A DNA stretch of 64,000 nt from Nitrospirota bacterium (GTDB lineage: Bacteria; Nitrospirota; Thermodesulfovibrionia; Thermodesulfovibrionales; UBA9159): assembly GCA_963699545.1 (NCBI GenBank), contig CAVOUE010000003.1:800001-864000 (forward strand), in the 5' to 3' direction. The notes under the pieces were generated by a model. It searched no databases. It was not told the DNA's origin and saw only the letters and a list, made by a program, of their open reading frames with translations. Position 1 is the first letter of the stretch. Each line of letters opens with the position of its first letter. A program made the position numbers and the translations under genes. This document shows, piece by piece, positions 8,401 through 64,000 of this stretch.

Positions 8401-8513
8401 TGGGCATCGCTCCAATCAGTGTCCTTGATGGTGTTGTAATCGGAGGCAGCGCCGTTCTCCCCTTATTGGTGAATGAAGGAACGAAGAAACTCCCGAAAGA
8501 GGTAACCGCATGA
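5428..8513 (+). CDS. P-type cation-transporting ATPase, P2A-like, with N-terminal HMA2-like domain (2 frameshifts)
   Basis: TGES, AVAAVPEGLP, DKTGT, KGSP, MITGD, GDGINDGPAL and QLLWINLMSD motifs across ORFs 5428-7074, 7082-7507 and 7344-8513. N-terminus HTAVKGRTRFRV...VNILTGKVLVFY. Confidence 0.9.
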
Positions 8514-27096: not shown

Positions 27097-28128
27097 TCAT
27101 AGATCGCCACTCCGTGGCCACACTCGTAAACGCTCATATATTTTCGTAGGGGCACGGTCGGCGGTATGTCGCAGCCGGGCATGAGGATAAAGTCGCCGTC
27201 GGTTCCTGCAGCCGCAATTATCTTCGTGCAGGTCTCTTCCACGTTGCTCGGACGTCCTCTGAAGCAGTACTTTCACGGGATCTACGTTGCCGGCAAAACA
27301 CATTGTACCAAAAGCGTCTTCTTCGCCTTTGGCGATGTCCGTTTTGTGGTCGAGACTTATGCAGCTACGCACTGTGCGCGGGAAAGAGGTCGAGCCTGTC
27401 CGTCGTGTTCCCGCAGACATGGAGAATAGTCTGAGCACCCATTGATCCGGCCCAGTCGGTGAAGGTCTTGAGGTGGGGAACGACAAAGGTCGCAAACTGC
27501 TTCCGCGATATGAGGTCGCCCGAGGCGGTTGGCTCTCCGATCAGAAGGACTTCGAGGTTCCCTTTTCTGAGCGGCGCTTCGTAGAACTGCATGAGAAGCG
27601 GACGGCGAAGGCCAGCACCTTTTCTACGAAGAGAGGTCTCCTGAAGAGAGCCTTCATCATCGCCTCCTCACCGATAAGTCGCGCCCCAAGCGTAAAGGGA
27701 CCCCAGGAGGTAAGGGTGACGACATACTCGTCGCCAATCAGCGTCTGAGTCGCCGTCAGCGCCTCGCGGAGAGCGGCAATAACGGGGTCCCGCTCGACAG
27801 CCTTCACATCGAGCCTGTCGAGGTCTTCCTCGGAGGCGACGATGACAGACTCCAGGTCCGGCGCCCCGATTTCCCTGAAAACGATCCGGCCTCCGAGGGC
27901 CGCCACGGGGAAATTGGGAAAACCCGAGCCGACATAGACGATGTCGCTGCGGAGTCTTCCCGCCATATCGACGAGCATGGATGTCATAGCCCGGGAGTCC
28001 AGGGAAAGGTCCCTGAAGGTGGTGCCGTAATGATGGACGCTCCACATGCCGCCGCCGATGAGGGCCACCGGCACCCTGTCAGGCCGTCCGCCCCTGAGGG
28101 CGGTGTGGATGATCTCTTTCGGGGTCAT
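27097..28128 (-). CDS. UroD/MtaA-family methyltransferase (frameshifted)
   Basis: MTPKE..GRPDRVPV, WGPFTL, ILHVCGN, FAGNVDP and FILMPGCDIP. Confidence 0.8.
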
Positions 28129-34219: not shown

Positions 34220-35269
34220 ATGTCAGCGAACATGACACCAAAGGAAAGAGTTTTGAAATTTTTGAAAGGCGAAAAGGTTGACCGTCTGCCGATCTTCAGC
34301 GGCATGGGTAATGTGATTAAGCCGGTGCTTGATAAATCCGGGATCGTCTTCTCAAGGGTCCACAGGGATTCAGAGCTCATGGCAAAAGCAGCGGCCGGCA
34401 TGTACCGGGATTTCGGGTACGAATGCGCAGTGGTCCCCTTCGACCTCGGCGTTGAGGCCGAGGCTCTTGGAGCAAAAATGAATTTTTATGATGACGTGGA
34501 AGGGCTTCTCTACCCAACGATCAAGGAGAAGTCGGTGAAGGAAGTCGATGACATCCACATCCCCGCCGACCTTGCACATGCGGGGAGGATCCCGATCGTG
34601 ACCGGCGCGATCAAGGCCCTTCGCAGAGAACTCGGTAACGATGTGGCCATCGGGACCTATGTCCTCGGGCCTTTTACCCTTGCCGGGCAGGTGAAGGAAC
34701 TGGACGAACTTTTTGAGGAATCATTTATCGAACCCGAGAAGACGGATAAGTTGCTCGCAAAGCTTTCCGAGTTCATTATACAGGTCTTTCGGATTTACCG
34801 TGACGCCGGGGCCGACTATTTTACCCTCCGCGAAATGGGCGGGACGTCGGACGTGATGAGTCCCAAAAGCTTCAAGAGCCTCATCAAGCCGCACCTCATC
34901 AGAATTCACTCGGAGATGCCGCGCCCCAGTATCCTCCATATCTGCGGAGATACCAACTCCATCGTCACCGACATGGCGGAGTGCGGAGCTGACGCTATAA
35001 GCGTTGACCAGAAGAACCGTCTGGCCGAGACCAGGGAGAAGCTGGGCCCCGACGTGATCATCCTTGGTAACTTTGACCCTATCAAGGTCCTCCATAAGGG
35101 GGAGGTGAAGGATGTCGGACCTGCGGTGCTGGAGCCCATCGAGGCGGGGGCAAGTGCGGTCTGGCCGGGCTGCGACCTCTGGCCTGAGGTGCCGAAAGAA
35201 AACATGGAAGCGCTGATGACAGCCCTTAAGTCTGTGAAACCTCTCACCGGCCAGAAAGTCTCACGATGA
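34220..35269 (+). CDS. MtaA/CmuA (UroD-superfamily) methyltransferase
   Basis: Strong SD; MTPKERV, VVPFDLGVEAEALG, GPFTLA, ILHICGD and WPGCDL. Confidence 0.88.
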   Translation: MSANMTPKERVLKFLKGEKVDRLPIFSGMGNVIKPVLDKSGIVFSRVHRDSELMAKAAAGMYRDFGYECAVVPFDLGVEAEALGAKMNFYDDVEGLLYPTIKEKSVKEVDDIHIPADLAHAGRIPIVTGAIKALRRELGNDVAIGTYVLGPFTLAGQVKELDELFEESFIEPEKTDKLLAKLSEFIIQVFRIYRDAGADYFTLREMGGTSDVMSPKSFKSLIKPHLIRIHSEMPRPSILHICGDTNSIVTDMAECGADAISVDQKNRLAETREKLGPDVIILGNFDPIKVLHKGEVKDVGPAVLEPIEAGASAVWPGCDLWPEVPKENMEALMTALKSVKPLTGQKVSR

Positions 35270-42021: not shown

Positions 42022-42724
42022 ATGAGGAATCACAATGGCGAACAAAATGGCGACCAGGAAAAAGAACAGGAATTGATCAAGAGACTTCAGGATGCGGTGA
42101 TCAACTTTAAGGTGGATGATGCGAAGAAGACCGCCGAGGAGGCCGTCGCAGGTCGGCGCGAACGCCTACACGGTGACGATGGAAGGTCTTGCGGGGGGTA
42201 TGGAGGTCGTAAGCCAGAAGATTCGACTGCCATGAGTATTTCGTGCCGGAGACGCTTCTCTGCGCAAAGGCGCTCTATGCGGCGCTCGACGTCCTGAAAC
42301 CGCACATCAAGGTGAGGTGAACATGGAGTGAAGCGGGGACAGGTCGTCCTCGGCGTCATGCAGGGTGACGTCCACGATCTCGGAAAGAACCTCATCAAGG
42401 CCATCTTCGAGGCCTCCGGCTGGACCGTGCATGACCTTGGCCGGGACGTTCCGCTCCAGAAGTTCGTGGAGGAACAGCTCAAGACCGACTCCGATATCGT
42501 CATGCTCTCTGCAATGATGACGACCTCCATGGTGGGCATCAAGAAGCTCATTCCGATGATCAAGGAGAAGAATCCGAAGGTGAAGATCATGATCGGAGGC
42601 GCGCCGATCACCGAGAAGACCGTCGAGGAGTACGGAGCGGACACCACGGCGGACAATGCGCCCAATGCCCTTCGAGGAGGCGATGAAGATGCTCGAAACC
42701 CTGAGGAGAGGAAAGGCTGCATAA
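42022..42724 (+). CDS. cobalamin-binding corrinoid protein (MtaC/MtbC-like; frameshifted)
   Basis: Cap domain with YFVPE, then GVMQGDVHDLGKN (DxHxxG), DLGRDVP, LSAMMTTS and MIGGAP. Confidence 0.88.
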
Positions 42725-42895: not shown

Positions 42896-44850
42896 ATGAA
42901 CCACACTATTATTTTTCAGCCCTCTGGCAGGCGCGGCCAGGTACCTGAGGGCACTACCATTCTCGATGCTGCGAGGAGACTGGGCGTCGGCATTGAAGCT
43001 GTCTGCGGAGAACAGCTTGTCTGCGGCAAATGCCGGGTGAAGGTTATGGAGGGAACATATCCCAAAGGAGGGCATCACTTCGGCGATGAGCCATCTCACG
43101 ACCTTGACGAAAAGGAGATAAAGGTCCTGAAGCGCAAGGATTCTCAAGAGCATATCCGACTTGCGTGTTCATCAAGGATAATGGGTGATGTGCTCGTATT
43201 TGTTCCCGAAGCAAGCCGCACCGGCAAAGCAGGTGGTGAGCAAGGCGGCCGGGAAGATCAAGGTAAAGCTGAAACCGGCAGTGAAGAAATACTATGTCGA
43301 ACTCCCCGTGCCCTCTCTGGACGAACCGCTTGGAGATTTCGAGCGGCTTGAACAGGCGCTCACTGAAAAGCACGGTCTCAAGAAGCTCTCCATAGACTAC
43401 AGGACGCTCCAGAAACTGCCTGACGCGGTCAGGAAAGGCGACTGGAAGGTGACGGCAACGGTATGGCAGAACGCGGAGATCATCAGGGTCGACCCGGGAA
43501 AGGTCGAGACGAACATCGGCCTTGCCGTCGATATCGGCACGACGACCGTTGCGGGATACCTGACGGATCTCAACACGGGAGAGGTGATCGTGACGGAATC
43601 GATGATGAACCCTCAGGTGCGGTACGGAGAAGATGTCATGTCCCGTATCACCTACTGCATGATGAACGAAGAGACAGGTCTCAAGGAGCTCCAGGAGACG
43701 ATCATCGAAGGACTCAACACGATCGCGAAACAGGCCGCTCACAAGGCGGGCTTCACCGCCGAGGACATAAGCGAAATGACCCTTGTGGGGAATACCGCGA
43801 TGCACCATATCCTCCTCGGGATCAACCCCGAATATACGGGTATGGCTCCGTTCACCCCTGCACTCCACCGTTCGGTAGACATAAAGGCGGACCGTTTCGG
43901 GATCCACATTCTTCCCTCCGGCAATATCCATGTATTGCCTATCGAGGCGGGCTTTGTGGGTGCTGACAATGTGGGCTGCCTGATCGCTGATGTGCCTTAC
44001 AAGCGGAAGGAGATGACCCTGCTCATCGATATCGGCACGAATGGAGAGCTTGTCCTCGGAAACAGGGAAAAACTCATCTCCTGTTCCTGCGCCACAGGCC
44101 CTGCCCTTGAAGGTGCCCAGATCGAGTTCGGGATGCGCGCGGCACCGGGCGCCATCGAAAGGGTAAAGATCGATCCCAAAACATTGGAAGCGACGTATCA
44201 GGTGATCGGAAGCGACCGCTGGAGCGACGGGGAGGTCAATATGCAGGCAAAAGGTATCTGCGGCTCTGCGATCATCGACGTGATCGCCGAGATGTTCAAG
44301 GCGGGGATACTGAAGAAGAACGGGCAGGTCAACATGGACCTTAAGTCACCGAGACTGAGGAAGGGTGATAAGGGCATGAACGAGTATGTGCTGGCCTGGA
44401 AGCACGAGACGTCCATAGACCAGGACATTGTGGTGAACCAGAAGGATGTCCGGGCGATACAGCTTGCCAAAGGCGCCCTCTATTCCGGCTGTCTCATCAT
44501 GATGCGGAAGCTCGGCATCAAGGAGTTCGACCGTCTGGCGGTGGCAGGCGCCTTCGGCAGCCACATCGACAAGGAAGAAGCGATGGTGATCGGCATGTAT
44601 CCCCGATTGTGATCTGAAAAAGGTAAAATATATCGGGAACGCCGCCGGTGACGGCGCCCGTATCGCTCTTCTCAATGTGGACAAGAGAAAAGAGGCCAAT
44701 GACATCGCCCGGAAGGTTGAGTATGTTGAACTTGCCCTCGAAGAGGACTTCAATGACCGTTTCGGAGAGGCGATGCAGTTCCCGCACATGTTCGATGCAT
44801 TCCCTCACCTTGAAGGCATTTTACCTGCTGAGGCGTTAAACGTGAGTTAA
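42896..44850 (+). CDS. ASKHA/DUF4445 reductive activator of corrinoid proteins (RACo/RamA-like), N-terminal [2Fe-2S] (frameshifted)
   Basis: CGEQLVCGKC..RLAC, AVDIGTTT, GEDVMSRI, IDIGTNGE, ATGPALEG, GICGS, IQLAKGA, AGAFG and GNAAG. Confidence 0.92.
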
Positions 44851-48996: not shown

Positions 48997-50049
48997 ATGG
49001 TTCATGAGACATTGAAGAGGATCAGGCCTTTGAGCGAAGACTACGCAGAACAGGCGCAGAAGAGGCTTGATAATCTCACAAAACCGCAGGGCAGCCTTGG
49101 GAGACTTGAGGAGTTTGCGAGGAGGCTTGTGGCGATCACCGAAAATTCCATGCCGGTGCTTGACAGGAAAGTCATCTTCACCTTTGCAGGGGATCACGGA
49201 GTCGCTGATGAAGGAGTCTCTGCCTATCCCCGAGAAGTAACCCGCCAGATGGTCCTCAACTTCCTGAACGGCGGGGCCGGTATAAACGTGCTCGCACGGC
49301 ATGCAGGCTCCGAGGTGGTTGTGGTCGATATGGGCGTCGATTACGATTTTGGAAAGATCAACGGACTGCTCTCCCGCAAGGTTGTCATGGGCACGAAGAA
49401 TATGCGCAAGGGTCCTGCAATGACCCGGGCAGAGGCCGAGACCTGTATCAATGTGGGAATCGAACTTGCGGACGCATATGCGAAAAAGAGATATGCCATA
49501 TTCGGGACAGGAGATATGGGCATCGCCAACACCACCCCCTCGTCTGCAATAGCCGCGGTTCTTACCGGAAAGTCCGTGCCGGAGGTGACAGGAAAAGGTA
49601 CCGGGATCGACGACCATGCCCTGGAGATCAAGATCAAGGTCATTGAGGATTCAATCGCCCTGAACCGGCCTGATCCAAAAGACCCGGTGGATGTCCTTGC
49701 CAAGGTAGGCGGTGCAGAGATCGGCGGCATTGCCGGCTTGGTCATCGGTGCCGCAGCAAACAGCGTCCCCGTCGTCATAGACGGGTTTATCTCAACCGCA
49801 GGGGCCTTGCTTGCGTATTGTCTCGAACCGAAAACAGGAGAGTATATGTTTGCAGCGCACAACTCTGTCGAGAAAGGGCATAAGGCGATGCTCGGGAAAA
49901 TGGGATTGAGACCGGTCCTTGACCTTGACCTGAGGCTCGGCGAAGGCACAGGCGCAGCGCTGGCAATGCTCATGATCGAGGCAGGGCTCAAGATTTACAA
50001 AGAGATGGCGACGTTCGGCGACGCGGGTGTATCGACAAGAAAGGATTAA
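48997..50049 (+). CDS. cobT: nicotinate-nucleotide:dimethylbenzimidazole phosphoribosyltransferase
   Basis: [27 protein letters not shown] and RLGEGTG. Confidence 0.95.
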
Positions 50050-50862
50050 ATGAGACCGCTGCTGCTCGCATTCCAGTTCCTGACCATAATACCAACACGG
50101 GTCAGGGGAGAGGTGACGGAAAGAGACCTCTCCCGCTCGGCGTCCTTTTTCCCTGTCGTGGGAGCATTTCAGGGGCTTATCGCCGTTGTCATGGTTTCAT
50201 ACCTGGGCAAGGAGTTCCCCCCGGAAATAACAGGCGCGCTGATCCTCCTTGCGTGGGTGCTCATGAACGGCGGATTCCATCTGGACGGTCTTGCAGATAC
50301 ATTCGATGCCCTTGCGGTCAAATCGACCGGGGATGAAGGCCTTGACAGGGAAAGACGGCTCTCCGTAATGAAAGACAGTTCATCAGGGTCCATCGGCGTG
50401 ACCGCCATTGTCTTTGCGGTCCTCCTGAAATTCCTTTTTCTGAGCTTCCTGATTTCTCACTCTGCTCCGTATACGTGCTTCACGCTGCTGTTCCTTGTGC
50501 CTGTATTTTCGAACTGGGTGATGGTCCCTGCCCTCTATCACGGAATATCTGCTCGCCCGGAGGGTCTCGGAAAACTGTTCATCGATTCAGCGGGAAGGAA
50601 CACGGTCGTCCTCGCCTCCCTCCTCGTCATCCTGTTCTTCCTGTCTTCCTCTTCGATCTATCTCTACAAGGCTTACGGTACAAGAACGATCACATTATTC
50701 CTCTCTCTTTCGATAACGCTCTATCTCTTCAGCCTCCTCTCGGTATGGTTCTGCAGGCGGCGGTTCGGCGGACTGACCGGAGACAATTTCGGCGCGATCC
50801 ATGAGATATCAGAAATCCTTTTCCTTTTCACGGTGACACGATGGTTACAACACTCTATTTAG
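50050..50862 (+). CDS. cobS: adenosylcobinamide-GDP ribazoletransferase (cobalamin synthase)
   Basis: FQFLTIIP, HLDGLADTFD, MKDS and FGGLTGD. Confidence 0.93.
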   Translation: MRPLLLAFQFLTIIPTRVRGEVTERDLSRSASFFPVVGAFQGLIAVVMVSYLGKEFPPEITGALILLAWVLMNGGFHLDGLADTFDALAVKSTGDEGLDRERRLSVMKDSSSGSIGVTAIVFAVLLKFLFLSFLISHSAPYTCFTLLFLVPVFSNWVMVPALYHGISARPEGLGKLFIDSAGRNTVVLASLLVILFFLSSSSIYLYKAYGTRTITLFLSLSITLYLFSLLSVWFCRRRFGGLTGDNFGAIHEISEILFLFTVTRWLQHSI

Positions 50863-51536
50863 TACGACACGGCGAAACAGAAGGGAGCGGGGCAAAGCGC
50901 TACCACGGGGGCATCGATGTCCCGCTGTCCGAAAATGGTATCCGGCAGGTGCGGGACGCATCCGTCTTCATCCGCGAACATCTGAGGTCCTCCGGCGCCC
51001 GGCAGGAAACGAGTTACCTGAAGGACATCCACCGGAATGACGCTGCTTCAGCCGGGAGTCCCAACCGGGAAACAATGGCGTCAATCTACTGCTCCGATCT
51101 CAGCAGGTCGCTGAAGAGTGCGGAGATCCTGGCCGGGCACTACGGCTTGAAGCCGGTGATCATGCCGGACCTGCGGGAGAGAAGCTTCGGGATATGGGAG
51201 GGAATGACCTTCGCGGAGATCAAGGAACGTTACCCTGAAGGGTTCGAGGCATGGGCCGGCAATCCGGTGAAATACAGTCCGCCGGGTGGCGAGAGCACCG
51301 TTGAGGTGAAAGACCGGGTGATCCGCGCATTGGATGAGATCATCGGAAGGCACGACGGGGAGCAACTGGCGATCGTGGCGCACGGCGGTGTGAACAGGGT
51401 CATCCTCTGCCAACTCCTCGGCGTCCCTCTCGAGAACATCTTCAGGATCGAACAGGGGCATGCCGCAGTGAACATCATAGAGTTCTGGGACAGGTACCCG
51501 GTCGTAAAACTCATGAACGGAGTTCCGTGTGAGTAA
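50841..51536 (+). CDS. cobC: alpha-ribazole phosphatase (histidine phosphatase)
   Basis: LVRHGET, SDLSR, FGIWEG and VAHGG; located in the cob operon. Confidence 0.85.
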   Translation: MVTTLYLVRHGETEGSGAKRYHGGIDVPLSENGIRQVRDASVFIREHLRSSGARQETSYLKDIHRNDAASAGSPNRETMASIYCSDLSRSLKSAEILAGHYGLKPVIMPDLRERSFGIWEGMTFAEIKERYPEGFEAWAGNPVKYSPPGGESTVEVKDRVIRALDEIIGRHDGEQLAIVAHGGVNRVILCQLLGVPLENIFRIEQGHAAVNIIEFWDRYPVVKLMNGVPCE

Positions 51537-53068
51537 GGCGCTCATGATACAGGGGACCGGTTCGGGCGTCGGGAAAAGCCTTGTCGCGGCTGGTCTGTGC
51601 AGGATATTCGCGGACCTGGGGATCAATGTGGCGCCGTTCAAGGCGCAGAACATGGCCCTGAATTCCTTCATCACGAAAGAAGGAGGAGAGATCGGTCGTG
51701 CGCAGGCCCTCCAGGCAGAGGCCGCCCGGGTCGAGCCGTCGGTGGACATGAACCCGGTCCTCCTTAAGGCATCGAGCGAGCGGAGCTGCCATGTGGTCAT
51801 GAACGGCAAGGTCTACTCGGATATGATGGCCAGGGATTACTACGCGTTCAAGGAAACGGCCTGGAAAGCAGTCACCCGGGCATATGAGCGTCTTTCCCGG
51901 AAGCATGACCTTATCATCATCGAGGGCGCGGGGAGCCCCGCAGAGATCAACCTCATGGAGGATGAGATCGTGAACATGAAGGTCGCCCGGCACGCCGGCG
52001 CTCCTGTGCTGCTCGTCGGAGATATTGACAAGGGCGGCGTCTTCGCATCCTTCCATGGAACCGTTGAACTTCTCAAGAACAGCCATGCCGATGCAGACCA
52101 TATCAGGGCCTTCATCATCAACAAGTTCCGGGGTGACGTCGAGATCCTGAGACCTGCACTTCCCATGATCGAGGAGAGAACAGGCAGGCCTGTCATCGGC
52201 ATCATCCCCTACCTCGGAGACCTCGGCCTCCACGAGGAAGACGGTATACCTCCGGAAAGACTCTGCAGACCTCCTTTTGATCCTTCTTCGCCCATCGGCC
52301 GCAGCCTGAAGATCGTCGTGCTCAGGCTCAGGTATATCTCGAACTTTACGGACTTCGATCCCTTTCTGTATGAGCCGGACGTAGAACTCGTCTATTCCCT
52401 CGGGGACCGGGACATCCAGAGCGCGGATCTCATCATCATCCCGGGATCAAAGAACACGGTGAGCGATCTTCTTTTCATGAGGGAGCACGGCATCGAGAGG
52501 AGCATCAAACACGCAGTCGAAAAGGGCATTCCCCTCATCGGTATCTGCGGAGGCTACCAGATGCTCGGGAGGAGGATCCACGATCAGCACGGGATCGAGA
52601 GCGCTCAGAGAGAAACCGACGGTCTCAATCTTCTGGATGTCGAGACCATCCTTGAAAAGACGAAGGTGACTTCTCAGATCGCAGCGTACCCTGAGGGGAT
52701 CAGGGACATCGGGTTCGGGCTGAGGAACGGCACATTGCATGGTTACGAAATCCATATGGGAAGGACAACAGGCGATGTCGGTCTCTTCAGGCTGAAGAGG
52801 TTCTCTCCTGACTTTGCCCTTGACGAACCGCTCCTTGACGGGTCGTCAAAGGGGGACGTCTGGGGCTCGTATATCCACGGTCTTTTTGACAACGACGACT
52901 TCAGGGGGACTCTGCTGAATGTTCTACGACAGAAAAAAGGTCTGTTCTCCCGGAGAGGCAACGATGCGGTATGGAGAGCAGAAAGAAAGGGCCATGGACA
53001 GCTGGGCGGATATCCTGAAAAGAAATATCGATATGGAGTTTGTTCTTAAACTTCTCGGAGCTCTTTAG
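51529..53068 (+). CDS. cobQ: cobyric acid synthase (C-terminal frameshift)
   Basis: QGTGSGVGKS, PFKAQNMALNS, EGAGSPAE, GICGGYQMLG and SYIHGLF. Confidence 0.95.
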
Positions 53069-53105
53069 CGTGAGCGAATATATTATGAACAACTGCTTTC
53101 AGCAG

Positions 53106-53280
53106 TTTAAGGAGGTATTTCAGGGGAATCCCGTGAAACCGGGAACTGCCCCGCAACTGTAAAGGGAACGAAAGCCGCCGTGAGCCAAAGAGCCACTGTC
53201 CGCCTCAGACGGATGGGAAGGCCGGCGAGTAGGCTGCCTCTGAATGAGGCAACGCCCTGAGTCAGGAGACCCTGGATACC
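53106..53280 (+). promoter_or_regulatory. cobalamin riboswitch
   Basis: GGGGAATCCCGTGAAACCGGGAACTGCCCCGCAACTGTA...GCCACTG...GGGAAGG...GAGTCAGGAGACC, upstream of btuB. Confidence 0.92.
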
Positions 53281-53319
53281 GGAAAACTAAATACCCTTCG
53301 AGGGAAGAGGAGGTTTTTT

Positions 53320-55323
53320 ATGGAAAGGCAGAAAAAATGCGGTTTGTTAAGGGGAAGAATGCTGATATCCTTGTCGATTCTTATGATTTTGTTGTTCGGT
53401 TCCGCGGGTGCGGAGGAAAAAATAACGGTAGGGGAGGTGGTTGTCACCGCAACGCGCCATGAGGAACAGGCAACCGATGTCCCTGCGAACGTCACTGTGA
53501 TAAGCGAAAAAGAGATCAAAAACTCTACGGCGCAGAATATCCCTGAACTGCTGCGGTCCGTGGTCGGCGTGCACGTGAACGATATCACCGGGAACGGCAG
53601 GGCCTACACTGTGGACCTCCGTGGCTTCGGGGAGACGGCGGCCCTGAACACCCTGGTGCTCGTTGACGGCAGACGCATCAACGCTGCGGATCTCAGCGGA
53701 GTGGACTGGCTGGATATACCTCTGGAACGGGTCAGCAGAATCGAGATCGTCCGCGGAGGGCGTGGCAGCGTCCTTTACGGTGACAACGCAGCCGGCGGTG
53801 TCATCAATATCATCACAAAAGAGGGGGCCGGAGGGCTCAACGCAGGGGCTGGTCTCGCCGCGGGCAGTTTCGGCACCTTAAAGGCGGATGCCTATGCGGG
53901 CGGAAGTCTGAAGGACTTTACTCTTCAGCTTTCGGGAGACTATCTTAGGTCCGACGGTTTCAGAGACAACAGCAAGACCGAATCGAGGGACTTCGGTCTG
54001 AATACCTCCTACTATTTGAAGGATCTCATGAAGATCGGGTTCAGCGCCGGATATCACAAGGACAACACCGGACTCCCCGGGGCGCTGAAGGAGAGCGATT
54101 TTGCGGCCGGGGCTTCCAGGACCGATACCCTGTTTCCGAACGACTTCGTGAAGACTGAAGATTATTACTTCATGCTCAGCCCGGAGGTCTATTTTCTGGG
54201 AGATAACGTGCTGAAGCTCGACACCTCGTACAGGAAGAGGGACTTCTCGACGTTCAGTTCGGGAGACTTTGGGAATTTCCTGGGCAACAGCAAGATCAAG
54301 ACCACGTTGTTCTCACCACAGGTCGTTCTGAAGCAAAAAGTGGCTGGGATTAGCAACACACTTACGGCGGGCATTGATTATCAAAAGGCGGATAACGATA
54401 TCGTGAACGATTCGCTCTTCTTCGGCACGCGTTCGACCGGGGTATTCGGCCTCGAGAAGGAGGAACACGGGTATTTCGCCCACGACGAGATGAACATCAC
54501 TGAATCCCTGCGCCTATCCGGAGGATACCGACACGACAGGGCGAGTTTCAGCTTTCATCCGAGCACACCCGAAAGCGTCTCGATGTCAGTGGACGTCTAT
54601 ACTGCCGGCATAAACTATACCTTCTTCAAACGCTCCTACGCTTACGTGAGTTATTCAAAGAGTTTCAGGTACCCGCTACTGGATGAGCTTTTCAGTTTCT
54701 TCAACAATACGATCAATACAGCCCTCGTCCCCCAGATCTCGGACAATTTTGAAGCGGGAGTAAGGCATTATTTCAGCGACTCCATCTATATGCACGTCAA
54801 CGCCTTCAGTCTGGACACGAAGGAAGAGATCTTCTTCAATCCTGTGACCTTTCAGAACGAGAACCTGGACGGAAAGACACGCAGGCAGGGCGTCGAAATA
54901 TCCCTTGAGGCCAGGCCTATGAATGCTCTTGCAGTGCGGGGCAGCTATACTTACATGAATGCAAAGATCAGGGAAGGCTCATTTTCAGGGAGCGACGTCC
55001 CCAATGCGCCGAGACACAAGGCAACCGTGGATGTGGCGTATAACGTAACGGAGCACGTTTCGGCAATCCTCAACGGCGTATATGTCGGGGAAAGGCGTTT
55101 TATAAGCGACTTTACGAACGAGTTCGGCAAGCAGGAAGCATATTTTGTGCTGAATGCGAAGTTTATCTACCGGTGGAAGTCCTTCAAGGCATTCTTGGAC
55201 TTAAACAATCTGACCGACAAGAAATACTCGGAATTCGGGGTCATAGGAGGGTTCCCTCTGGAAAGGGCGTTCTATCCTTCGCCGGGGAGGAATTTTCTTG
55301 CTGGCATATCGTTCACTCTCTGA
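53320..55323 (+). CDS. btuB: TonB-dependent receptor, probable cobalamin transporter
   Basis: EVVVTATR, plug-domain LVLVDG and RIEIVRG..SVLYG, C-terminal GRNFLAGISFTL; follows a B12 riboswitch. Confidence 0.85.
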   Translation: MERQKKCGLLRGRMLISLSILMILLFGSAGAEEKITVGEVVVTATRHEEQATDVPANVTVISEKEIKNSTAQNIPELLRSVVGVHVNDITGNGRAYTVDLRGFGETAALNTLVLVDGRRINAADLSGVDWLDIPLERVSRIEIVRGGRGSVLYGDNAAGGVINIITKEGAGGLNAGAGLAAGSFGTLKADAYAGGSLKDFTLQLSGDYLRSDGFRDNSKTESRDFGLNTSYYLKDLMKIGFSAGYHKDNTGLPGALKESDFAAGASRTDTLFPNDFVKTEDYYFMLSPEVYFLGDNVLKLDTSYRKRDFSTFSSGDFGNFLGNSKIKTTLFSPQVVLKQKVAGISNTLTAGIDYQKADNDIVNDSLFFGTRSTGVFGLEKEEHGYFAHDEMNITESLRLSGGYRHDRASFSFHPSTPESVSMSVDVYTAGINYTFFKRSYAYVSYSKSFRYPLLDELFSFFNNTINTALVPQISDNFEAGVRHYFSDSIYMHVNAFSLDTKEEIFFNPVTFQNENLDGKTRRQGVEISLEARPMNALAVRGSYTYMNAKIREGSFSGSDVPNAPRHKATVDVAYNVTEHVSAILNGVYVGERRFISDFTNEFGKQEAYFVLNAKFIYRWKSFKAFLDLNNLTDKKYSEFGVIGGFPLERAFYPSPGRNFLAGISFTL

Positions 55324-55355
55324 TTGCGGCTTCTGAACAGAAGGGTGTAGGTGAA

Positions 55356-56117
55356 GTGCGAGTGAGGGCATTCGGAAACAACATAATGTTTTCCGCCGTT
55401 GTACACATGACGATCATTACGGCGGCTCTGGCTCTGGCAGGTAGGGGCGCGGCTTTGCGCGTCCCTGATGAATATGTGAAGGTAACCTTGATCGGACCTG
55501 CGGAGACGCTGCAGCAAGGGATGGGCGTGGGGCGGAAAGAAGAGCCTGCAAAGGGACCTGAGCAGCAAGTGAAGAGAAAGCGGCTGCAGAAGACTACCGC
55601 GCCCCCCCCTGCGGTCACTGAGAGGAAAGAGTCAACGCCTGACCCCCTCCCCGAGACAAAGATTTCGTCTCAGGATGGGACAGGCCCCGCAAAGGGAGAT
55701 CAGGCCGAAGTCGCCGGGTCCCTTCAGGGAGATCAGGGTGAAGGGTTCCGGAGGACATCTTCTGGAGTATTGCAGGTAGCTGTCCTCGGCAGAGAAAACC
55801 GGAAGGACGATCCTGCAGCAGGTGAAGAGAGGAAGACGGGGAGCGGCCCTTGGGCGGTCGGCGCGATAAGGAATGCCATAGAGCGGGCAAAAACATATCC
55901 GGCCCTTGCAAGGAAGAGAAACCAGGAAGGCACTGTTGTTATGGAATTCTCGATCAATGCCAAAGGGGTGCCGGAGAATATCAGGGTAACGAAAAGCTCG
56001 GGGTTCAGCCTTCTTGATACGGCGGCGAAGGAAACCGTTATCAGGGCAGCACCACTGCCGGCGGTGCAAGGCAGCATTGAGGTGCCGATCACGTTCATCC
56101 TGAAAAAAGAACATTGA
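55356..56117 (+). CDS. tonB: energy transducer TonB
   Basis: TM segment with His, Pro-rich linker and YPALARKRNQEGTV..SSGFSLLD C-terminal domain. Confidence 0.85.
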   Translation: MRVRAFGNNIMFSAVVHMTIITAALALAGRGAALRVPDEYVKVTLIGPAETLQQGMGVGRKEEPAKGPEQQVKRKRLQKTTAPPPAVTERKESTPDPLPETKISSQDGTGPAKGDQAEVAGSLQGDQGEGFRRTSSGVLQVAVLGRENRKDDPAAGEERKTGSGPWAVGAIRNAIERAKTYPALARKRNQEGTVVMEFSINAKGVPENIRVTKSSGFSLLDTAAKETVIRAAPLPAVQGSIEVPITFILKKEH

Positions 56118-56195
56118 CCCATTGGCGCGCCGGAGCGCGTTATCAGGTACAATAGGGTTATAAGGGGGATGCAGGCCCAGCCGGAAAGGAGTTCA

Positions 56196-56714
56196 ATGCG
56201 CAGGGGATACGTTCAGGTATACACAGGCAACGGCAAGGGAAAGACGACCGCGGCCCTTGGTCTCGCGCTGAGGGCTGCCGGAGCCGGCCTCAAGGTATTT
56301 ATTGTGCAGTTCATCAAGAAGAGACGGTGCAGCGAACACAAAATGCTGGAACGGTTCGGGGGCCTGATAACCATACGGCAGCACGGCAGAGGCTTTCTTC
56401 TGAAGCGGAAGGCGAACCGCTCGGATGTCAGTGAGGCACAGGCCGGCCTTGGCGAGGTGAGAGAGGCTATCGCATCAAGGGAATTCGATGTCGTGATACT
56501 GGACGAAGCGAATGTTGCGGTGAACTGCAATCTCCTCAGCGTCGACGACCTTATCGAACTGATGGAAGCGAAGCCGAAGAACATCGAAATGATCATCACC
56601 GGCAGATACGCCGATGAGAAGGTGATCCAAATGGCCGACCTTGTGACTGAAATGAAAGAGATCAAGCACTACCGCAAGAAAGGCGTGAAAGCCAGGGCAG
56701 GCATTGAATTCTAG
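56196..56714 (+). CDS. cobO: cob(I)yrinic acid a,c-diamide adenosyltransferase (CobA/CobO/BtuR)
   Basis: YTGNGKGKTTAALG, VQFIK, ILDE, TGR and ADLVTEM. Confidence 0.93.
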   Translation: MRRGYVQVYTGNGKGKTTAALGLALRAAGAGLKVFIVQFIKKRRCSEHKMLERFGGLITIRQHGRGFLLKRKANRSDVSEAQAGLGEVREAIASREFDVVILDEANVAVNCNLLSVDDLIELMEAKPKNIEMIITGRYADEKVIQMADLVTEMKEIKHYRKKGVKARAGIEF

Positions 56715-56752
56715 GAACGGAGTAGCGCTGTGCCCTTCTTCGCAGGTCCTCC

Positions 56753-57463
56753 ATGGATGAACGTCTTTCCAGGGCGATGAGCTATGTCGTAGGGATTGGG
56801 TACAAACCCTTTGACAAAAGGGGAAAAGAGATTATCATGAAGGCAGACATCATTCTCGCCTCTGAAAGGCTCTTTGATGTCTTTAGGAGGTATGAGGAAT
56901 TCGAGCTGGTCAGGGACAAAACAGAGGTGATCAATAACGTGGACGCCACGATGAATTTTCTCAGGTCTCATCTCTCGGGTCTTAAGTCTCATGCCGTCGT
57001 TCTCGCCTCGGGTGATCCCCTGTTCTGCGGTATCGGCAGAAGGATGGTGGAGGAGTTCGGGAAGGAAGCGGTGGAGATAATCCCCGACCTTTCGAGCGTC
57101 CAGCTCGCCTTTGCGAGGATAAAGGAGCCGTGGGACGATGCGCTCCTCATCAGCGTTCACCACGGTCCCGACGCCGAGGCGCGAAGGAAGCCGAAGTACG
57201 GGGTAAAGGATATTCCGTCCCTCCTTGCGAAGCACGAAAAGATCGCTGTGCTCACCGATAAGGGGAACAATCCGGCGGTGATCGCACGAGAGATAGTGTG
57301 CTCGTCGGCTATCAGCCGTCAGCGGTCGGCTATAAAAATATTTATATGCGAGAAACTGGGATATCCCGACGAACGTATCATTCAAGGAACGCCGGACGAG
57401 GTGGCGGCCATGGAGTTTTCAGAGCCGAATGTGGTCATATTGTTGAGGCGGCAGCAATCCTGA
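56753..57463 (+). CDS. cbiE: precorrin-6Y C5-methyltransferase (CbiE-like)
   Basis: VVGIG, VLASGDPLFCGIG, SSVQLAFAR and CEKLGYPDE. Confidence 0.85.
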   Translation: MDERLSRAMSYVVGIGYKPFDKRGKEIIMKADIILASERLFDVFRRYEEFELVRDKTEVINNVDATMNFLRSHLSGLKSHAVVLASGDPLFCGIGRRMVEEFGKEAVEIIPDLSSVQLAFARIKEPWDDALLISVHHGPDAEARRKPKYGVKDIPSLLAKHEKIAVLTDKGNNPAVIAREIVCSSAISRQRSAIKIFICEKLGYPDERIIQGTPDEVAAMEFSEPNVVILLRRQQS

Positions 57464-58614: not shown

Positions 58615-59208
58615 ATGTCAGAGAAAGAAAAACCGTTGCCAAAACCTCCGAAGACGCCCTTTGGAAGAAAGCGTTCTGAGGAAAGGGAAGAGGGCGCCCC
58701 GCTTATGGCTGACAGGATGGCCGCAGCGATGGCAGAGGGAAAACTGGCAGAGTTCATGAAGGAGGAGATGCCCGATAATGACTACGCCAGGGCCCTTGCC
58801 TCGATGATGATGGGAATTACCGGCATGATGCCGCCTGAGGCCTTTCCTCCCCGTTCCGGGGAAAGACCGGAAGAGTGTTCTGACAGGGCCGAAGACGTGA
58901 ACCCGCCGGAGGTGATGCCTTCCGGCGTTCAGCCTCCGGCGGATGTGATGGATGCTGCTCACACAGGTGACGTAAAAGGCGTTATGGAGATGCTTGCCAG
59001 GGAACATGAGAAGAGGAATCCGGGATCAGGATCGATCCCCGCGGAAAAGGAAGGAACGGATGATATGCCCGGACTCAGTGACGTTGAGAAGGAGACCCTG
59101 AACCAGCTCTTGAAGATTGCATCTGAAAACAACGTGAGTGTGGACTGGATGGTGTTAAGGGCCCTCAGCCTCTACATCCGTGAGTATCACAACACAGGGC
59201 GGCTCTGA
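58615..59208 (+). CDS. hypothetical protein (possible C-terminal ribbon-helix-helix-like motif)
   Basis: 197-aa ORF ending ETLNQLLKIASENNVSVDWMVLRALSLYI. Confidence 0.65.
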   Translation: MSEKEKPLPKPPKTPFGRKRSEEREEGAPLMADRMAAAMAEGKLAEFMKEEMPDNDYARALASMMMGITGMMPPEAFPPRSGERPEECSDRAEDVNPPEVMPSGVQPPADVMDAAHTGDVKGVMEMLAREHEKRNPGSGSIPAEKEGTDDMPGLSDVEKETLNQLLKIASENNVSVDWMVLRALSLYIREYHNTGRL

Positions 59209-60242: not shown

Positions 60243-61076
60243 TCAAAAGCCTAGGTCCTTCAACTTTTCCAGGCTGTTTTCGTCATAGTGCTCTCTTTTC
60301 CACTTGAAAGGGACGTCGATGATCTCCCCGGGTGTTTTTATGAAATAGAGAGCGCTAAAAGCCTCAGCCAGTACCGCCCTCTGCTGGGCGATATTGAACG
60401 GTTCTCCCAGCGGATGTCCGAAAGGCCACCTGAGATAAATCGTCCTGGGCGGTTTCACCTTCTCGGTATATTCCCTGACTATGGATATCCCAATAGTGGG
60501 GATGCCCATTCCCTCGATCACTCTCTGTATCAGTCCGACGGCCTGATTGCACGTGCCTCAGCCCGGCGTCATTAACACCACATCAACACCCTCTGCCTTG
60601 AGGCGTTTGGCAACCTTCGGGGCGGTATCGGCGACGAGGGTCTGGAGCCGGGGACCCAGTATGTGGCCCATGAATCCGTAATGGGTATGTGATAGTGTGC
60701 CGATGATCCCTTCGCCTTGAAACTCCCTGAGTCTTTCAAGCGGGAACACGATATTCATATCCCTGTCTGCATCGCCATGATCATAATAGTCGTGCGTGAT
60801 CATGAGGTCGTTCGGCGGTCTTGTGCCATCGATCACCCTGAAGGTGGCATCTCCGTTGGGATCTCTCATGTCAAAAGGCGTTTGATCCTTCTGATGCACT
60901 CCGGCAGTAGTGACCAGCGCCACCGAACATTTACGCAGGGGTTTACTCACCGGTGTCCAGGGGATCTCCTTTGATTCCGCGGGACGGTATGAAGCGATAA
61001 AGAGCTCTGCGAGGAGGGGGAAACGGGTAAGGACCTTTGCCAGGAGCCTGTTCTTTAATCGTGAAATCTCTGTCAC
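60243..61076 (-). CDS. GrdB/PrdB-like reductase selenoprotein B family protein (U-x-x-C)
   Basis: VALVTTAGVH, HDYYDH, NIVFPL and DVVLMTPG-TGA-GTCNQAVGLIQRVIEGMGIPT. ORFs 60558-61076 and 60243-60521 are in the same frame. Confidence 0.85.
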
Positions 61077-61308: not shown

Positions 61309-61561
61309 GGTTTATTATACACCGAATGGGGTCTTATTAAGGACGTCCAAATTTCCACGTCCCGTCACATTTCCGGCGCGGAAGAAGGGTATATCCGGTG
61401 TTCTAAGAATGAAAAGACGACTTGACCTGTCATCGGCAAACGCAAGAATTCTTCGATGGAAGCGTACAAACATGGAACAGTTTCCCCTTTCTGTCCTCTT
61501 CACCATTCATGCTATGCTATAGTGAAAGAAAAATAGAGGGAGTGTGGGGTTTGACGAAATT

Positions 61562-62503
61562 ATGAAACTCAGGATAGGGCATCTCTCCACCTTTTACCAT
61601 ACTTCAATCTTGTTAATGGCAAAGGGAGACGCCGGCAAAAAACTTGGAGTCGATGTCGAGTGGGAGTTGTTCGGCACAGGTCCCGCAATTGTGGAAGCCT
61701 TTGAAAGAGGCAAGCTTGACCTCGCTTACATTGGATTGCCGCCGGCCATCATAGGGATAAGCAGGGGAATGAGCATTATATGCATTGCGGGGGGACATAT
61801 AGAAGGAACAGTAATTGCCGGGGAAAGAGAGTTGATCAGCTATCAGGAAGAAGAAGACATACGGATTATCCTCGATCAACTCACAGGAAAGTGCATAGGA
61901 GTGCCGGGGAAGGGTTCGATACACGACGTGATCATAAGGGAATGCCTTGAAAGATTGAATCTCACGGAAGGGATAGAGATAGTGAATTTTCAGTGGGCTG
62001 ACCAGGTGACAGAGGCGGTGGCGAAGGGAGAAGTCTCCGCTGCAGTCGGCACTCCTGCCTTGGCCGTGGCAGTTGAACGCTATGCCGCTGGTAAGATCCT
62101 CTATCCCGCGTCAAGGCTCTGGCCCCACAACCCCAGCTACGGAATTGTCGTAGACAAAAGGTTTTTGACCGAGGAGAGGGAAACGGTCGAGCGCTTTCTC
62201 GTTCTCCATGAAGAGGCGACTTCCCTGATCAGGAACAGGCCGGGAGAGGTGGCGAGGACGATCGCCCGTTATGTCGGGTTCATCGATGAAGAGTTTGTGA
62301 TGGATACCCTGAAGGTGTCTCCAAAATACTGTGCCCAGATCACCGACGAGTATATTTCTTCGACGATGGAATTTGTGAAGGCGCTGAAACGGCTGGGATA
62401 CATACGCAGAGACATCGGTTCCGACGGCATTTTTGATACCCTTTTGATCAGACGACTTCATCCTGAGAAAGACCACTACGGAGACGGCATCGCAGAGGCT
62501 TAA
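61562..62503 (+). CDS. NitT/TauT (SsuA/TauA-like) substrate-binding fold protein
   Basis: RIGHLSTFYHT, FGTGPAIV, DLAYIGLPP and GVPGKGSIHD; no obvious signal peptide. Confidence 0.75.
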   Translation: MKLRIGHLSTFYHTSILLMAKGDAGKKLGVDVEWELFGTGPAIVEAFERGKLDLAYIGLPPAIIGISRGMSIICIAGGHIEGTVIAGERELISYQEEEDIRIILDQLTGKCIGVPGKGSIHDVIIRECLERLNLTEGIEIVNFQWADQVTEAVAKGEVSAAVGTPALAVAVERYAAGKILYPASRLWPHNPSYGIVVDKRFLTEERETVERFLVLHEEATSLIRNRPGEVARTIARYVGFIDEEFVMDTLKVSPKYCAQITDEYISSTMEFVKALKRLGYIRRDIGSDGIFDTLLIRRLHPEKDHYGDGIAEA

Positions 62504-63642
62504 CCGCGCATGAGGAACTCTTGCACCTGTCTTTTTATCTCCAGATGGTGCAGGGGAATATTCGGCACATCCTTGTTTCCCGGAACAGCGAGGACATGGA
62601 CAAATCTGACCCCCTCGTCTGAACTTTTCATTACATCCGTCAACCCTTTCTCATCAGCCACTTTGATGGTATTCTTTATCCCGAATCCCGTCGCCACAGC
62701 CGCAAGGTCAACACATGATTTTGTAAGTGTGGGCTGGTTTCCTGTTGAGCCGTAGGAACCGTTATCTATTGCAAAGACGGTGAGATTTCCGGGCGAGAAA
62801 TGTGCAGCAGTAGCAAGGCTCCCAGGATTCATCAAGAGGCTCCCGTCACCATCTATTGCAATAACGTGCTTTCTTGATGTCAGCGCGATCCCGAGTCCGA
62901 TGGGGGTAACCATGCCCATGCTGCCCAGCATATAAAAGTTGGACGGCTGGTGTTTGATATGGAAGAGTTCTTTTGAAGGGGCGCCAAGATTGCATACAAC
63001 CACTTTGGAATCAAGATAAGGGGCTATGATATTCAGAATCTCGAAGCGTGTCAGCCGCGGCGAATGCGTCCGGTGCCCGATAGGTGCTTCATATTCAATT
63101 CTTTCTTTGGTGCCTTTTGTTCTGACTGAGGACTGCTGAACGCTGACTTCCGATTTTTCCCATATCGCGGGGCTGAGGAGAAATGCGTGGATCCGGTTCT
63201 TCTTGTAAACGTCTTCAAGTCTCTTCCCTACAAGCCCGAAATCCTTCCGTGTGTTGACGGCTGTATGGTGTATGCCGGCGCCATCTAAAATACCAGGGAG
63301 TTTCTTGCCCATGGGTATCTGGGCTCCGATTTTCTCTTTATATATGCCTCTGCGGCTGACAAACAAGGCGAGGGGCAGCCGGTAAAATCCTGTGAGGGAA
63401 AGTAATGCATTGATCATATTCCCGACGCCTGAACTCTGGACGAACATTGCGGGCCGTCTGCCGGATAATGCAGCGCCTGCAGTGATGCCGACACCCTCTT
63501 CTTCCCGGGTCAAAGGCACATGAAAAAACTCTTCGCTCACCCGTTCGAGAAGGACTTTGATCTTCTCGCAGGGAAGGGAAGAAATAAAGTCGACCCCGTT
63601 CTTCTTAAGCAGTGCTATCAGCTCTTCTTCAGGGTATTGCAT
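62500..63642 (-). CDS. comDE: fused sulfopyruvate decarboxylase alpha/beta (ComDE)
   Basis: SLPC, LTREEEGVG and QSSGVGN (alpha); NFYMLGSMG, IDGDGSLLM and DNGSYGSTGNQ (ThDP-binding beta). Confidence 0.85.
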   Translation of the reverse strand: MQYPEEELIALLKKNGVDFISSLPCEKIKVLLERVSEEFFHVPLTREEEGVGITAGAALSGRRPAMFVQSSGVGNMINALLSLTGFYRLPLALFVSRRGIYKEKIGAQIPMGKKLPGILDGAGIHHTAVNTRKDFGLVGKRLEDVYKKNRIHAFLLSPAIWEKSEVSVQQSSVRTKGTKERIEYEAPIGHRTHSPRLTRFEILNIIAPYLDSKVVVCNLGAPSKELFHIKHQPSNFYMLGSMGMVTPIGLGIALTSRKHVIAIDGDGSLLMNPGSLATAAHFSPGNLTVFAIDNGSYGSTGNQPTLTKSCVDLAAVATGFGIKNTIKVADEKGLTDVMKSSDEGVRFVHVLAVPGNKDVPNIPLHHLEIKRQVQEFLMRG

Positions 63643-64000
63643 AGTAACCCCTCTATCTCCTTCTCCGAAATCTTTTTTGATATGGCAAGGGGCTCCACAG
63701 TATACATTTCCCTCTTCTGTTTCAGTCTCTTTTCGCCACCTCCGGTGATATTGAGTAATATCGTGTCGCTCTTCTGTACCGTGCCCGTGTGCACGGCATT
63801 TATGAGGGCTGCGGATGCAACCCCGGCTGCAGGTACGATATCTATCCCCTCCGCCCTTTCGAAGATCTCCATTGCAGAATACACCTCCTCATTTCTTATG
63901 CCATACATTTTTCCCCCTGTTGCCTTGAGGGCGTCATAGACGCCACCGCCGAGGGAATAGGCAGGATAGCGGGTCGAAAGAACCCTGGTGGTTATCTCTC
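63618..64000 (-). CDS. cysteate synthase-like PLP enzyme (threonine synthase fold), 3' end only
   Basis: VLSTRYPAYSLGGGVYDALKATGGKMYG...EGIDIVPAAGVA...LLNITGGG; overlaps the start of comDE. Confidence 0.75.
   Translation of the reverse strand, partial: EITTRVLSTRYPAYSLGGGVYDALKATGGKMYGIRNEEVYSAMEIFERAEGIDIVPAAGVASAALINAVHTGTVQKSDTILLNITGGGEKRLKQKREMYTVEPLAISKKISEKEIEGLLCNTLKKS

Follow-up and report, generated by a model that had tools for sequence, protein, structure and literature searches.

The 64,000-nucleotide stretch analysed here (the window; positions 800001-864000 of contig C3) has at its end two overlapping minus-strand genes, which encode a cysteate synthase (CS) and a fused ComDE sulfopyruvate decarboxylase. 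The ComDE gene (62500..63642, 380 amino acids), an open reading frame (ORF) recognized by NCBIfam models, is the last gene of an operon that continues beyond the window; positions past the edge are given below as window-equivalent coordinates, which equal the L003 coordinate plus 60000. The 3' end of the CS gene, comprising its last 126 codons, occupies 63618..64000 (ORF to 63998) and is open at the window edge. Read past this edge in the contig, the full CS ORF encodes 418 amino acids (window-equivalent 63618-64874) and overlaps the ComDE gene by 25 nucleotides (63618-63642). The host is a bacterium, as a sequence-only reading of the window had held, and its nearest named relatives are Nitrospirota; its bacterial markers include a TonB-dependent receptor and an L,D-transpeptidase encoded in the window and a DsrA over its cut-off in the genome. 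The genome is 87% complete, a value that applies to every whole-genome absence reported here.

The CS ORF scores 480.4 bits against the NCBIfam model TIGR03844 (cysteate_syn; cut-off 324.9), whereas the best threonine synthase model gives 87.1 bits and does not reach its cut-off of 303. Its top match in the PDB is the structure 9k3c of a cysteate synthase (E 3.8e-94, 319 bits), with threonine synthases at 49 bits or less. The CS segment "tfKefea" is aligned to "sfKetea" of 9k3c, with conservation of the lysine of the S/T-F-K motif, which is presumably the residue that binds pyridoxal phosphate (PLP). A paralogue encoded on contig C1 reaches 469.8 bits against TIGR03844, and proteins 71-81% identical to CS are already labelled [quoted passage not shown] in databases. 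In the case of ComDE, the alpha half scores 178.6 bits against TIGR03845 (cut-off 147.95) and the beta half 221.9 bits against TIGR03846 (cut-off 221.5), a marginal pass. Its Pfam domains are TPP_enzyme_N and TPP_enzyme_C, and the thiamine pyrophosphate motif GDG...N is found at residue 265. The NCBIfam phosphonopyruvate decarboxylase model gives 199.9 bits, below its threshold of 312.5, and no phosphoenolpyruvate (PEP) mutase over cut-off was found in the genome (best match 123.4 bits vs 319.55). At the level of sequence families, the pair at 62500-64000 is thus confirmed as a genuine cysteate synthase and a fused ComDE. The sequence-only reading, which had described a CS-like PLP enzyme overlapping a fused ComD-ComE and had weighed an ordinary ThrC and a phosphonopyruvate decarboxylase as alternatives, was borne out on each of these points. 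Judged by its family membership, the predicted CS would form cysteate from phosphoserine and sulfite; a reaction scheme leading from these two compounds to sulfoacetaldehyde via CS, a transaminase, and ComDE was reportedly given by Graham et al. in 2009.

The operon runs on the minus strand with short gaps or overlaps between its genes. In window-equivalent coordinates, it begins with a URO-D methyltransferase of 355 amino acids (76223-77290; hereafter the second URO-D enzyme), a CMD-family protein of 175 amino acids (75660-76187), an MtrH-like methyltransferase (74620-75567), and an MtaA-like methyltransferase of 344 amino acids (73541-74575). These are followed by a corrinoid protein with a DxHxxG motif (72843-73535), a Fer4 ferredoxin-type protein of 222 amino acids (72178-72846), the reductive activase RACo (70001-71974), and the ATPase, permease, and SsuA genes of a sulfonate-type ABC transporter (67316-69948), the SsuA of which has a signal sequence. 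The genes for DUF6951 (66929-67273), a NarI/DsrM-type cytochrome b (66081-66890), an HdrD-like protein (64885-66211, in two frames), CS, and ComDE complete the order. The end of the operon recurs as a paralogous copy on contig C1 (14428-24845; L004:9428-19845), which comprises a RACo fragment, DUF6951, SsuA, ABC ATPase, cytochrome b, HdrD-like protein, CS, and ComDE. The two copies share 69% DNA identity, the gene order, and the inserted ABC transporter; in the C1 copy, the HdrD-like and CS genes overlap by 4 nucleotides, and an extra, divergent pair of NarI-like cytochrome b and HdrD-like genes is present (L004:13130-15177). The transporter lies between RACo and DUF6951 in both copies (67316-69948; L004:15954-18533) and is of the same kind as the transporter for coenzyme M (CoM) of Methanosarcina acetivorans; among 80 related loci, it occurs in only 3. 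Across the 40 kb of the two operon loci, no Rfam family reached its gathering score.

Both URO-D enzymes of the operon have the M. mazei MtaA as their nearest solved relative (E 7.7e-49 for the 344-amino-acid enzyme and 6.6e-27 for the second). The 344-amino-acid enzyme exceeds the cut-offs of the MtaA/CmuA subfamily (TIGR01463, 262.4 vs 235.4) and of methylcobalamin:CoM methyltransferase (NF004889, 291.3 vs 244). Its residues H243-x-C245 and C321 align to the HICG and PGC motifs of 4ay7, and H249-x-C251 and C331 occupy the same motif positions in the second URO-D enzyme. According to the accessible parts of PMC10418091, a His-Cys-Cys set marks the sulfur and selenium methyltransferases of the superfamily, as opposed to the O-demethylases. 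The MtrH-like protein is over the cut-off for an MtrH/MtgA-type methyltransferase acting on methyl-tetrahydrofolate (NF002142, 338.5 vs 287), and an AcsB/CdhC-like gene is present in the genome. Because of this MtrH/MtgA-type enzyme, the FolD gene that lies within the operon in some relatives (13/80 loci), and the AcsB-like gene, the folate pool is the probable partner of a thiol or thioether in the transfer of methyl groups. The system shares with MtaA/MtbA/MtsA of methanogens (M. mazei MtaA, 4ay7/4ay8) the fold family, the His-x-Cys...Cys zinc motif, and the neighbouring corrinoid protein and reductive activase; it differs from them in that it stays below the cut-offs of the methanogen equivalogs and in that a tetrahydrofolate methyltransferase of MtrH/MtgA type belongs to the operon, as in bacterial methylotrophic systems.

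Among published concepts, the mlp clusters described in a preprint by Kountz and Balskus (PMC10418091) come closest; methyl-sulfur or methyl-selenium chemistry was proposed for them in its available sections. As in the type 1 mlp clusters described in those sections, several MtaA-like enzymes with His-Cys-Cys sets are encoded beside a corrinoid protein and RACE/RACo in non-methanogens (PMC10418091). The type 1 clusters are presented there as mostly from Firmicutes and as lacking a tetrahydrofolate methyltransferase, whereas an MtrH-family gene is found here in 43/46 loci. The operon was therefore rejected as a type 1 mlp cluster, which requires at least Mlp2 and Mlp3 with a corrinoid protein and RACE and the absence of this enzyme. 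The text of PMC10418091 contains no "Nitrospir-", "cysteate", "sulfopyruvate", or "MtrH".

The HdrD-like protein contains two CxxCxxCxxxC and two CCG motifs (residues 22, 87, 169-243, and 295-372), all 18 cysteines of which are invariant among 33 sequences, and it adjoins the NarI/DsrM-type cytochrome b (Nitrate_red_gam), which has four membrane histidines. HdrDE of Methanosarcina is a membrane heterodisulfide reductase, and DsrMK belongs to sulfate reducers. The present pair resembles HdrDE and DsrMK in having an Fe-S subunit with two ferredoxin-type clusters and two CCG motifs and a cytochrome b encoded beside it; in contrast to these systems, the curated cut-offs are not reached, including that of DsrM by the cytochrome b (55 vs 300), and the DsrAB of the genome is encoded elsewhere. 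In DUF6951, residues C11, C35, H72, and C75 are invariant among 26 sequences. The predicted structure (pLDDT, the predicted local distance difference test score, 89.7) gave Foldseek rows that are nearly all IscU, SufU, SufE, or CsdE, albeit weak ones with E values of at least 0.03 and TM scores of about 0.48. With a second aligner (VIA), IscU reached a Z score of 6.1, tied with unrelated domains at 5.9-6.2. An hhalign comparison with the IscU of the same genome was not significant (probability 0.1%), and the sole match of the DUF6951 profile among PDB sequences was a BolA-like protein (E 0.062). DUF6951 is regarded, from its structural model, as a still unproven IscU-like candidate for a sulfur or Fe-S carrier. 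Its Atlas clusters are most frequent in Nitrospirota, Thermodesulfobacteriota, and Chloroflexota.

When each species was represented by one genome, a scan yielded 443 stretches encoding a CS relative, and the conservation counts given in this work cover the best 80 of these loci, 77 of which bear titles with Nitrospir-, Thermodesulfovibrio-, or Sulfobium. A gene was scored as present if it lay on the CS strand and on the expected side, and the denominator is the number of loci with enough contig. On this basis, ComDE accompanies CS in 68/69 loci, and the neighbouring genes are kept as follows: HdrD-like in 68/73, cytochrome b in 59/64, DUF6951 in 59/63, RACo in 51/54, the Fer4 protein in 49/54, and the corrinoid protein in 47/51. 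The methyltransferase end follows with MtaA-like in 45/49, MtrH-like in 43/46 (the MtrH-family count given above), CMD-like in 38/43, and the second URO-D enzyme in 31/42. The 40 commonest ORF clusters of the 80 loci were matched to the operon proteins, and nine representatives of the unmatched clusters were scanned against Pfam; neither an aminotransferase nor a COG1900 protein was among these 40 clusters. The sequence-only reading had expected the remaining genes of the archaeal type, an aminotransferase and a ComF-like COG1900/ferredoxin protein, to lie past position 64000; this expectation failed, as neither gene was found at the two operon loci of this genome or among the commonest neighbour clusters.

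Co-occurrence was surveyed across the phylum with an evenly drawn set of 301 genomes. CS was found in 59 of them (55 over the cut-off) and an orthologue of the MtaA-like gene in 63; the two genes occurred together in 57 genomes, and 236 had neither of them. The two genomes with CS alone are 65-68% complete, and in two of the six with the MtaA-like gene alone, the contig ends right past the methyltransferase genes. Since relatives are not independent of one another, these counts describe a pattern and do not constitute a statistical test. A link of the pair to MtaA-like enzymes had been put forward from the window, and it proved to be much stronger than the window alone could show: the MtaA-like, second URO-D, MtrH-like, corrinoid, and RACo genes are members of the operon of CS itself. 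The accompanying statement that four MtaA-like enzymes lie 20-40 kb away needs correction, because the window holds three URO-D-like loci (23149-24103, 27104-28128, and 34226-35239).

The descent of CS was examined with a midpoint-rooted tree of 51 rows: the 2 copies of this genome, 9 Nitrospirota loci, 11 named methanogen rows picked from 120 homologue matches, and 29 other rows picked from 150 representatives, all other rows being left out. The Nitrospirota CS sequences form a single clade (12 rows, SH-aLRT support 100) outside the methanogen clade, and named Methanomassiliicoccus, Methanosarcinales, and Methanothrix sequences form a separate one (support 90). A FastTree analysis of 97 rows likewise placed the Nitrospirota CS, including both copies of this genome, in one clade, and the identity of CS to the best representative outside it is at most 49%. 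Because the Nitrospirota clade is not nested in that of the methanogens, the label "Methanosarcinales-type" given to these genes in the sequence-only reading names the type of pathway and implies no recent transfer; it holds for the former and not for descent.

The type 2 CoM genes of M. acetivorans offer the nearest archaeal comparison, here taken from the accessible portions of PMC11844431. In this archaeon, cs (MA3297) stands beside the fused comDE (MA3298), as in the present operon, and the aminotransferase is encoded outside the cluster in both organisms (PMC11844431). CoM starvation in M. acetivorans induces ssuBC, which encodes a CoM ABC transporter, together with cs, comDE, and hdrABC (PMC11844431), so that a sulfonate ABC transporter and Hdr share a regulon there and an operon here. 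[quoted passage not shown] Among bacteria, alkene oxidisers make CoM by the Xcb pathway, which starts from PEP via a ComA homologue and is not known to involve cysteate synthase or ComDE. The two systems are comparable in that a bacterium makes, or here would make, CoM for a non-methanogenic use (PMC9457059, accessible text). In the openly readable literature, which excludes subscription journals and supplements, no paper was found that links cysteate synthase, ComDE, or the operon with Nitrospirota or Thermodesulfovibrionia. The main text of the Candidatus Sulfobium paper mentions no coenzyme M, cysteate, methyltransferase, corrinoid, or heterodisulfide. A cysteate synthase gene is mentioned in the available text of PMC12019592 for one bacterial metagenome-assembled genome (MAG), for which taurine synthesis was suggested.

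Because the cs-comDE, MtaA-type, and Hdr-type gene sets, all three tied to CoM in Methanosarcina, are united in one operon, with a sulfonate ABC transporter added in this genome, the arrangement is explained most simply if the metabolite they share is CoM or a near analogue. With gene identities, operon order and conservation, co-occurrence, and intact cofactor motifs established here, a possible role was proposed for CS-ComDE as the biosynthetic end of an operon built on a small sulfonated thiol, CoM (2-mercaptoethanesulfonate) or a close analogue, a proposal that we consider about evenly poised between right and wrong. Sulfite should be available because this is a DsrAB organism; supplied by dissimilatory sulfate reduction, it would be combined with O-phosphoserine by CS to give cysteate, which a housekeeping aminotransferase could convert to sulfopyruvate. 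ComDE would then decarboxylate sulfopyruvate to sulfoacetaldehyde. The conversion of sulfoacetaldehyde to the thiol would proceed without the archaeal ComF, and the plentiful sulfide of a sulfate reducer is a candidate source of the sulfur; an alternative candidate for this step is the three-cysteine DUF6951 protein together with the HdrD-like/cytochrome b pair. Zinc-binding MtaA-type enzymes (His-Cys-Cys), the corrinoid protein, RACo, and the MtrH-type enzyme could exchange methyl groups between the thiol or thioether and the folate one-carbon pool. The membrane-bound HdrD-like/cytochrome b pair may bring the thiol or its disulfide into redox contact with the quinone pool, and the sulfonate ABC transporter of both copies could add salvage in this genome. 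A more specific form of the proposal appears doubtful to us: genuine CoM would be made independently of ComF, with DUF6951 and the HdrD-like/cytochrome b pair giving sulfur and electrons, and would act, free of MCR, as a methyl carrier linking a corrinoid protein with the folate pool and as a respiratory thiol/disulfide couple.

Several observations weigh against the proposed CoM-type thiol, among them the gap at the last step. The archaeal final enzyme ComF is MMP16, a COG1900 protein (PMC11844431, accessible text). In this genome, the ComF model TIGR03287 gave 17 matches, all to ferredoxin stretches and none over cut-off, and PF01837 (COG1900) gave none; in the phylum sample, PF01837 was matched in 10/301 genomes and in 0/59 of those with CS. 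The gap may be tolerable, since an MMP16 mutant of M. acetivorans grows free of CoM in sulfide medium, where an abiotic reaction of sulfide with sulfoacetaldehyde is cited (PMC11844431, same portions), and a sulfate reducer is rich in sulfide. As to known consumers of CoM, neither McrA nor a nitrogenase-like reductase was found in the genome. The 344-amino-acid enzyme lies below the cut-off of the methanogen MtaA equivalog (259.2 vs 400) and the second URO-D enzyme below that of the MtaA/CmuA subfamily (195.9 vs 235.4); in addition, bacterial MtaA homologues can use selenide or sulfide (PMC10418091, available sections), and non-native thiols are methylated by MtaA (PMC13618148, available sections). 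The HdrD-like protein stays under every curated cut-off (TfrB, 176.1 vs 385; DsrK, 81.9 vs 400), and among solved structures, it is nearest to an "iron-sulfur-binding reductase" (E 5e-26) and matches HdrB only at an E value of about 2e-3. The top solved relatives of ComDE are two chains titled "putative phosphonopyruvate decarboxylase". No RNA run is among the 15 listed sequencing runs, 13 of which have a word share of at most 0.11. Furthermore, some operon genes are split into two or three frames, namely those for the HdrD-like protein and the ABC ATPase in the window-end copy and for ComDE in the C1 copy. These splits are assembly errors or decay. Frame-split genes also occur elsewhere: a P-type ATPase gene (5428-8513) and a RACo gene (42902-44823) in the window, a molybdopterin oxidoreductase and a sigma-54 regulator gene on contig C1, and an AcsB-like gene on contig C4. 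Since many unrelated genes are split, the pattern resembles, and suggests, an indel-prone assembly.

A further point against the proposed thiol comes from three genomes of one family (f19), which keep a divergent cytochrome b/HdrD-like pair along with the methyltransferase genes (MtaA-like proteins 75-76% identical), and in which CS, ComDE, and ComA were not found. At their loci (L097:14381-17510, L098:2948-6070, and L101), CS-ComDE is replaced by genes for a radical S-adenosylmethionine (SAM) protein, a DVU_1556-family SAM methyltransferase, and a B12-radical SAM protein, with a two-component system and the divergent cytochrome b/HdrD-like pair upstream; DUF6951 is present in one locus (L098). 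Orthologues of the replacement genes were found neither in the 80 CS loci nor in this genome, and a COG1900 protein is encoded elsewhere in two of the three genomes. Because these genomes lack CS-ComDE, the methyl-transfer and Hdr-like core does not strictly depend on the sulfonate pathway, and the f19 organisms either import the thiol or use a different one.

These genomes also lend themselves to an explanation free of CoM, in which the module transfers methyl groups from methylated sulfur or selenium compounds (dimethylsulfide, methanethiol, methylmercaptopropionate, or dimethylselenide) to tetrahydrofolate and CS-ComDE supplies something else to the same regulon. Such a role would fit the f19 genomes, which run the module without CS-ComDE, and is consistent with the MtrH/MtgA-type enzyme (338.5 vs 287 against NF002142), the FolD gene inside 13 of the 80 loci, the His-Cys-Cys pattern of sulfur and selenium methyltransferases in both URO-D enzymes (PMC10418091, in the parts available), and a probable selenoprotein gene that adjoins the locus in this genome. 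It does not explain why CS-ComDE accompanies the module almost invariably (57/59 genomes, with the order kept in 45/49 to 68/69 loci) or why there are two thiol-type methyltransferases per corrinoid protein and an HdrD-like pair, and the tetrahydrofolate methyltransferase is absent from the mlp clusters as published in the available sections of PMC10418091. We regard this explanation as unlikely.

The remaining alternatives keep the sulfonate pathway and give it another end. If it stopped at or branched from sulfoacetaldehyde, the product could be taurine, isethionate, or sulfoacetate, serving as an osmolyte, a store, or a sink for sulfite. The failure to find the thiol-forming enzyme (by TIGR03287 or PF01837 in the genome, and by PF01837 in the 59 CS-bearing genomes) would be accounted for in this way, and an anaerobic route from cysteate to taurine was proposed for subsurface MAGs (PMC12019592, accessible text). 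A class-III aminotransferase and an aldehyde dehydrogenase encoded next to a ComA-like gene elsewhere in the genome could also be read in its favour. This ComA-like gene, of the phosphosulfolactate synthase family and the only one of its kind here, lies 370 kb away on contig C3 (487265-492154; L102:4265-9154), adjoined by the class-III aminotransferase gene and a split aldehyde dehydrogenase gene; it scores 268 bits against Pfam ComA and remains below the cut-off of the archaeal ComA model (87 vs 280). The cluster, which possibly represents another set of sulfonate genes, gave no match in the sister genome G175, however, and no Xsc over cut-off is encoded in this genome. Neither a sulfoacetaldehyde reductase nor a transaminase was found among the conserved neighbours (40 commonest clusters, 80 loci), and an osmolyte pair would need neither translational coupling to an HdrD-like protein nor a corrinoid methyltransferase operon over 80 species, which makes such an end product quite improbable. 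Cysteate could instead feed sulfonolipids of the capnine type, or the decarboxylase could belong to a phosphonate pathway. To our knowledge, the sulfonolipid route includes no decarboxylase, and ComDE follows CS in 68 of 69 loci, which counts against the former, even though a cysteate synthase starts sulfonolipid synthesis in some bacteria (PMC11211663, accessible text). The titles of the solved ComDE relatives would suit the latter, but the phosphonopyruvate decarboxylase (199.9 vs 312.5) and PEP mutase (123 vs 319.6) models both stay under their cut-offs. We give either of these routes a very slight chance, and an operon built on CoM or a close analogue is retained as the preferred explanation.

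Several other features adjoin the locus within the window. Convergent with the ComDE gene, a plus-strand gene (61544..62503) encodes a cytoplasmic SsuA/NMT1-like protein of 319 amino acids that has no signal peptide; it carries the Pfam domain NMT1_2, scores 107.7 bits against TIGR01728 (SsuA_fam), short of the cut-off of 163.5, and has a homologue near CS in 19/80 related loci. A conserved protein of 197 amino acids (58615..59208, plus strand), matched by no Pfam or NCBIfam family, is 48% identical to a 199-amino-acid protein encoded beside ComDE in relatives (36/80 loci), and inspection of its C-terminus by eye suggests that it may be a small regulator. Near the operon end, a PrdB/GrdB-like reductase gene (60243-61076, minus strand) contains an in-frame TGA (...LMTPG*GTCNQ...) and hence probably encodes a selenoprotein; it was a conserved neighbour in 0/80 related loci. 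Directly upstream of the locus, window positions 48997-57463 hold genes for the nucleotide loop and the salvage of cobamides (CobT, CobS, a CobC-like phosphatase, CobQ, CobO, and a tetrapyrrole methylase), along with one for a TonB-dependent receptor.

A second corrinoid methyltransferase island spans window positions 23149-44823. It contains the three URO-D/MtaA-like genes at 23149-24103, 27104-28128, and 34226-35239, the first two of which are frame-split, a prismane/CODH-family gene (28448-30208), a corrinoid protein gene (42058-42675), and the split RACo gene (42902-44823). Also encoded in the island are CobW, a VWA protein, a MoxR-like ATPase, and a PAS histidine kinase accompanied by a LuxR-type regulator. 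In the region of the ComA-like gene, L102:424-1611 encodes a protein of 395 amino acids with a predicted pPIWI-associating nuclease domain (PF18165).

[quoted passage not shown] The present work adds two paralogous operon copies that both carry the transporter insertion, the lack of COG1900 matches in 59/59 CS-bearing genomes, a CS-less f19 variant, and an IscU-like model for DUF6951, together with a genome in which MCR, Xsc, PEP mutase, and a nitrogenase-like reductase were not found. With its roughly eleven genes, the operon offers a clearly delimited gene set for testing a putative methyl-thiol metabolism. If the widespread and as yet uncultured Nitrospirota that reduce sulfate in soils, sediments, and aquifers do make and use CoM or a close analogue of it, genes of the CoM pathway would be no marker of methanogens in metagenomes, and inhibitors that are analogues of CoM could affect bacteria as well. 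A ComF-independent formation of the thiol would then await discovery, and with sulfite fixed into a sulfonate, a single cell would link organic and inorganic sulfur cycling.

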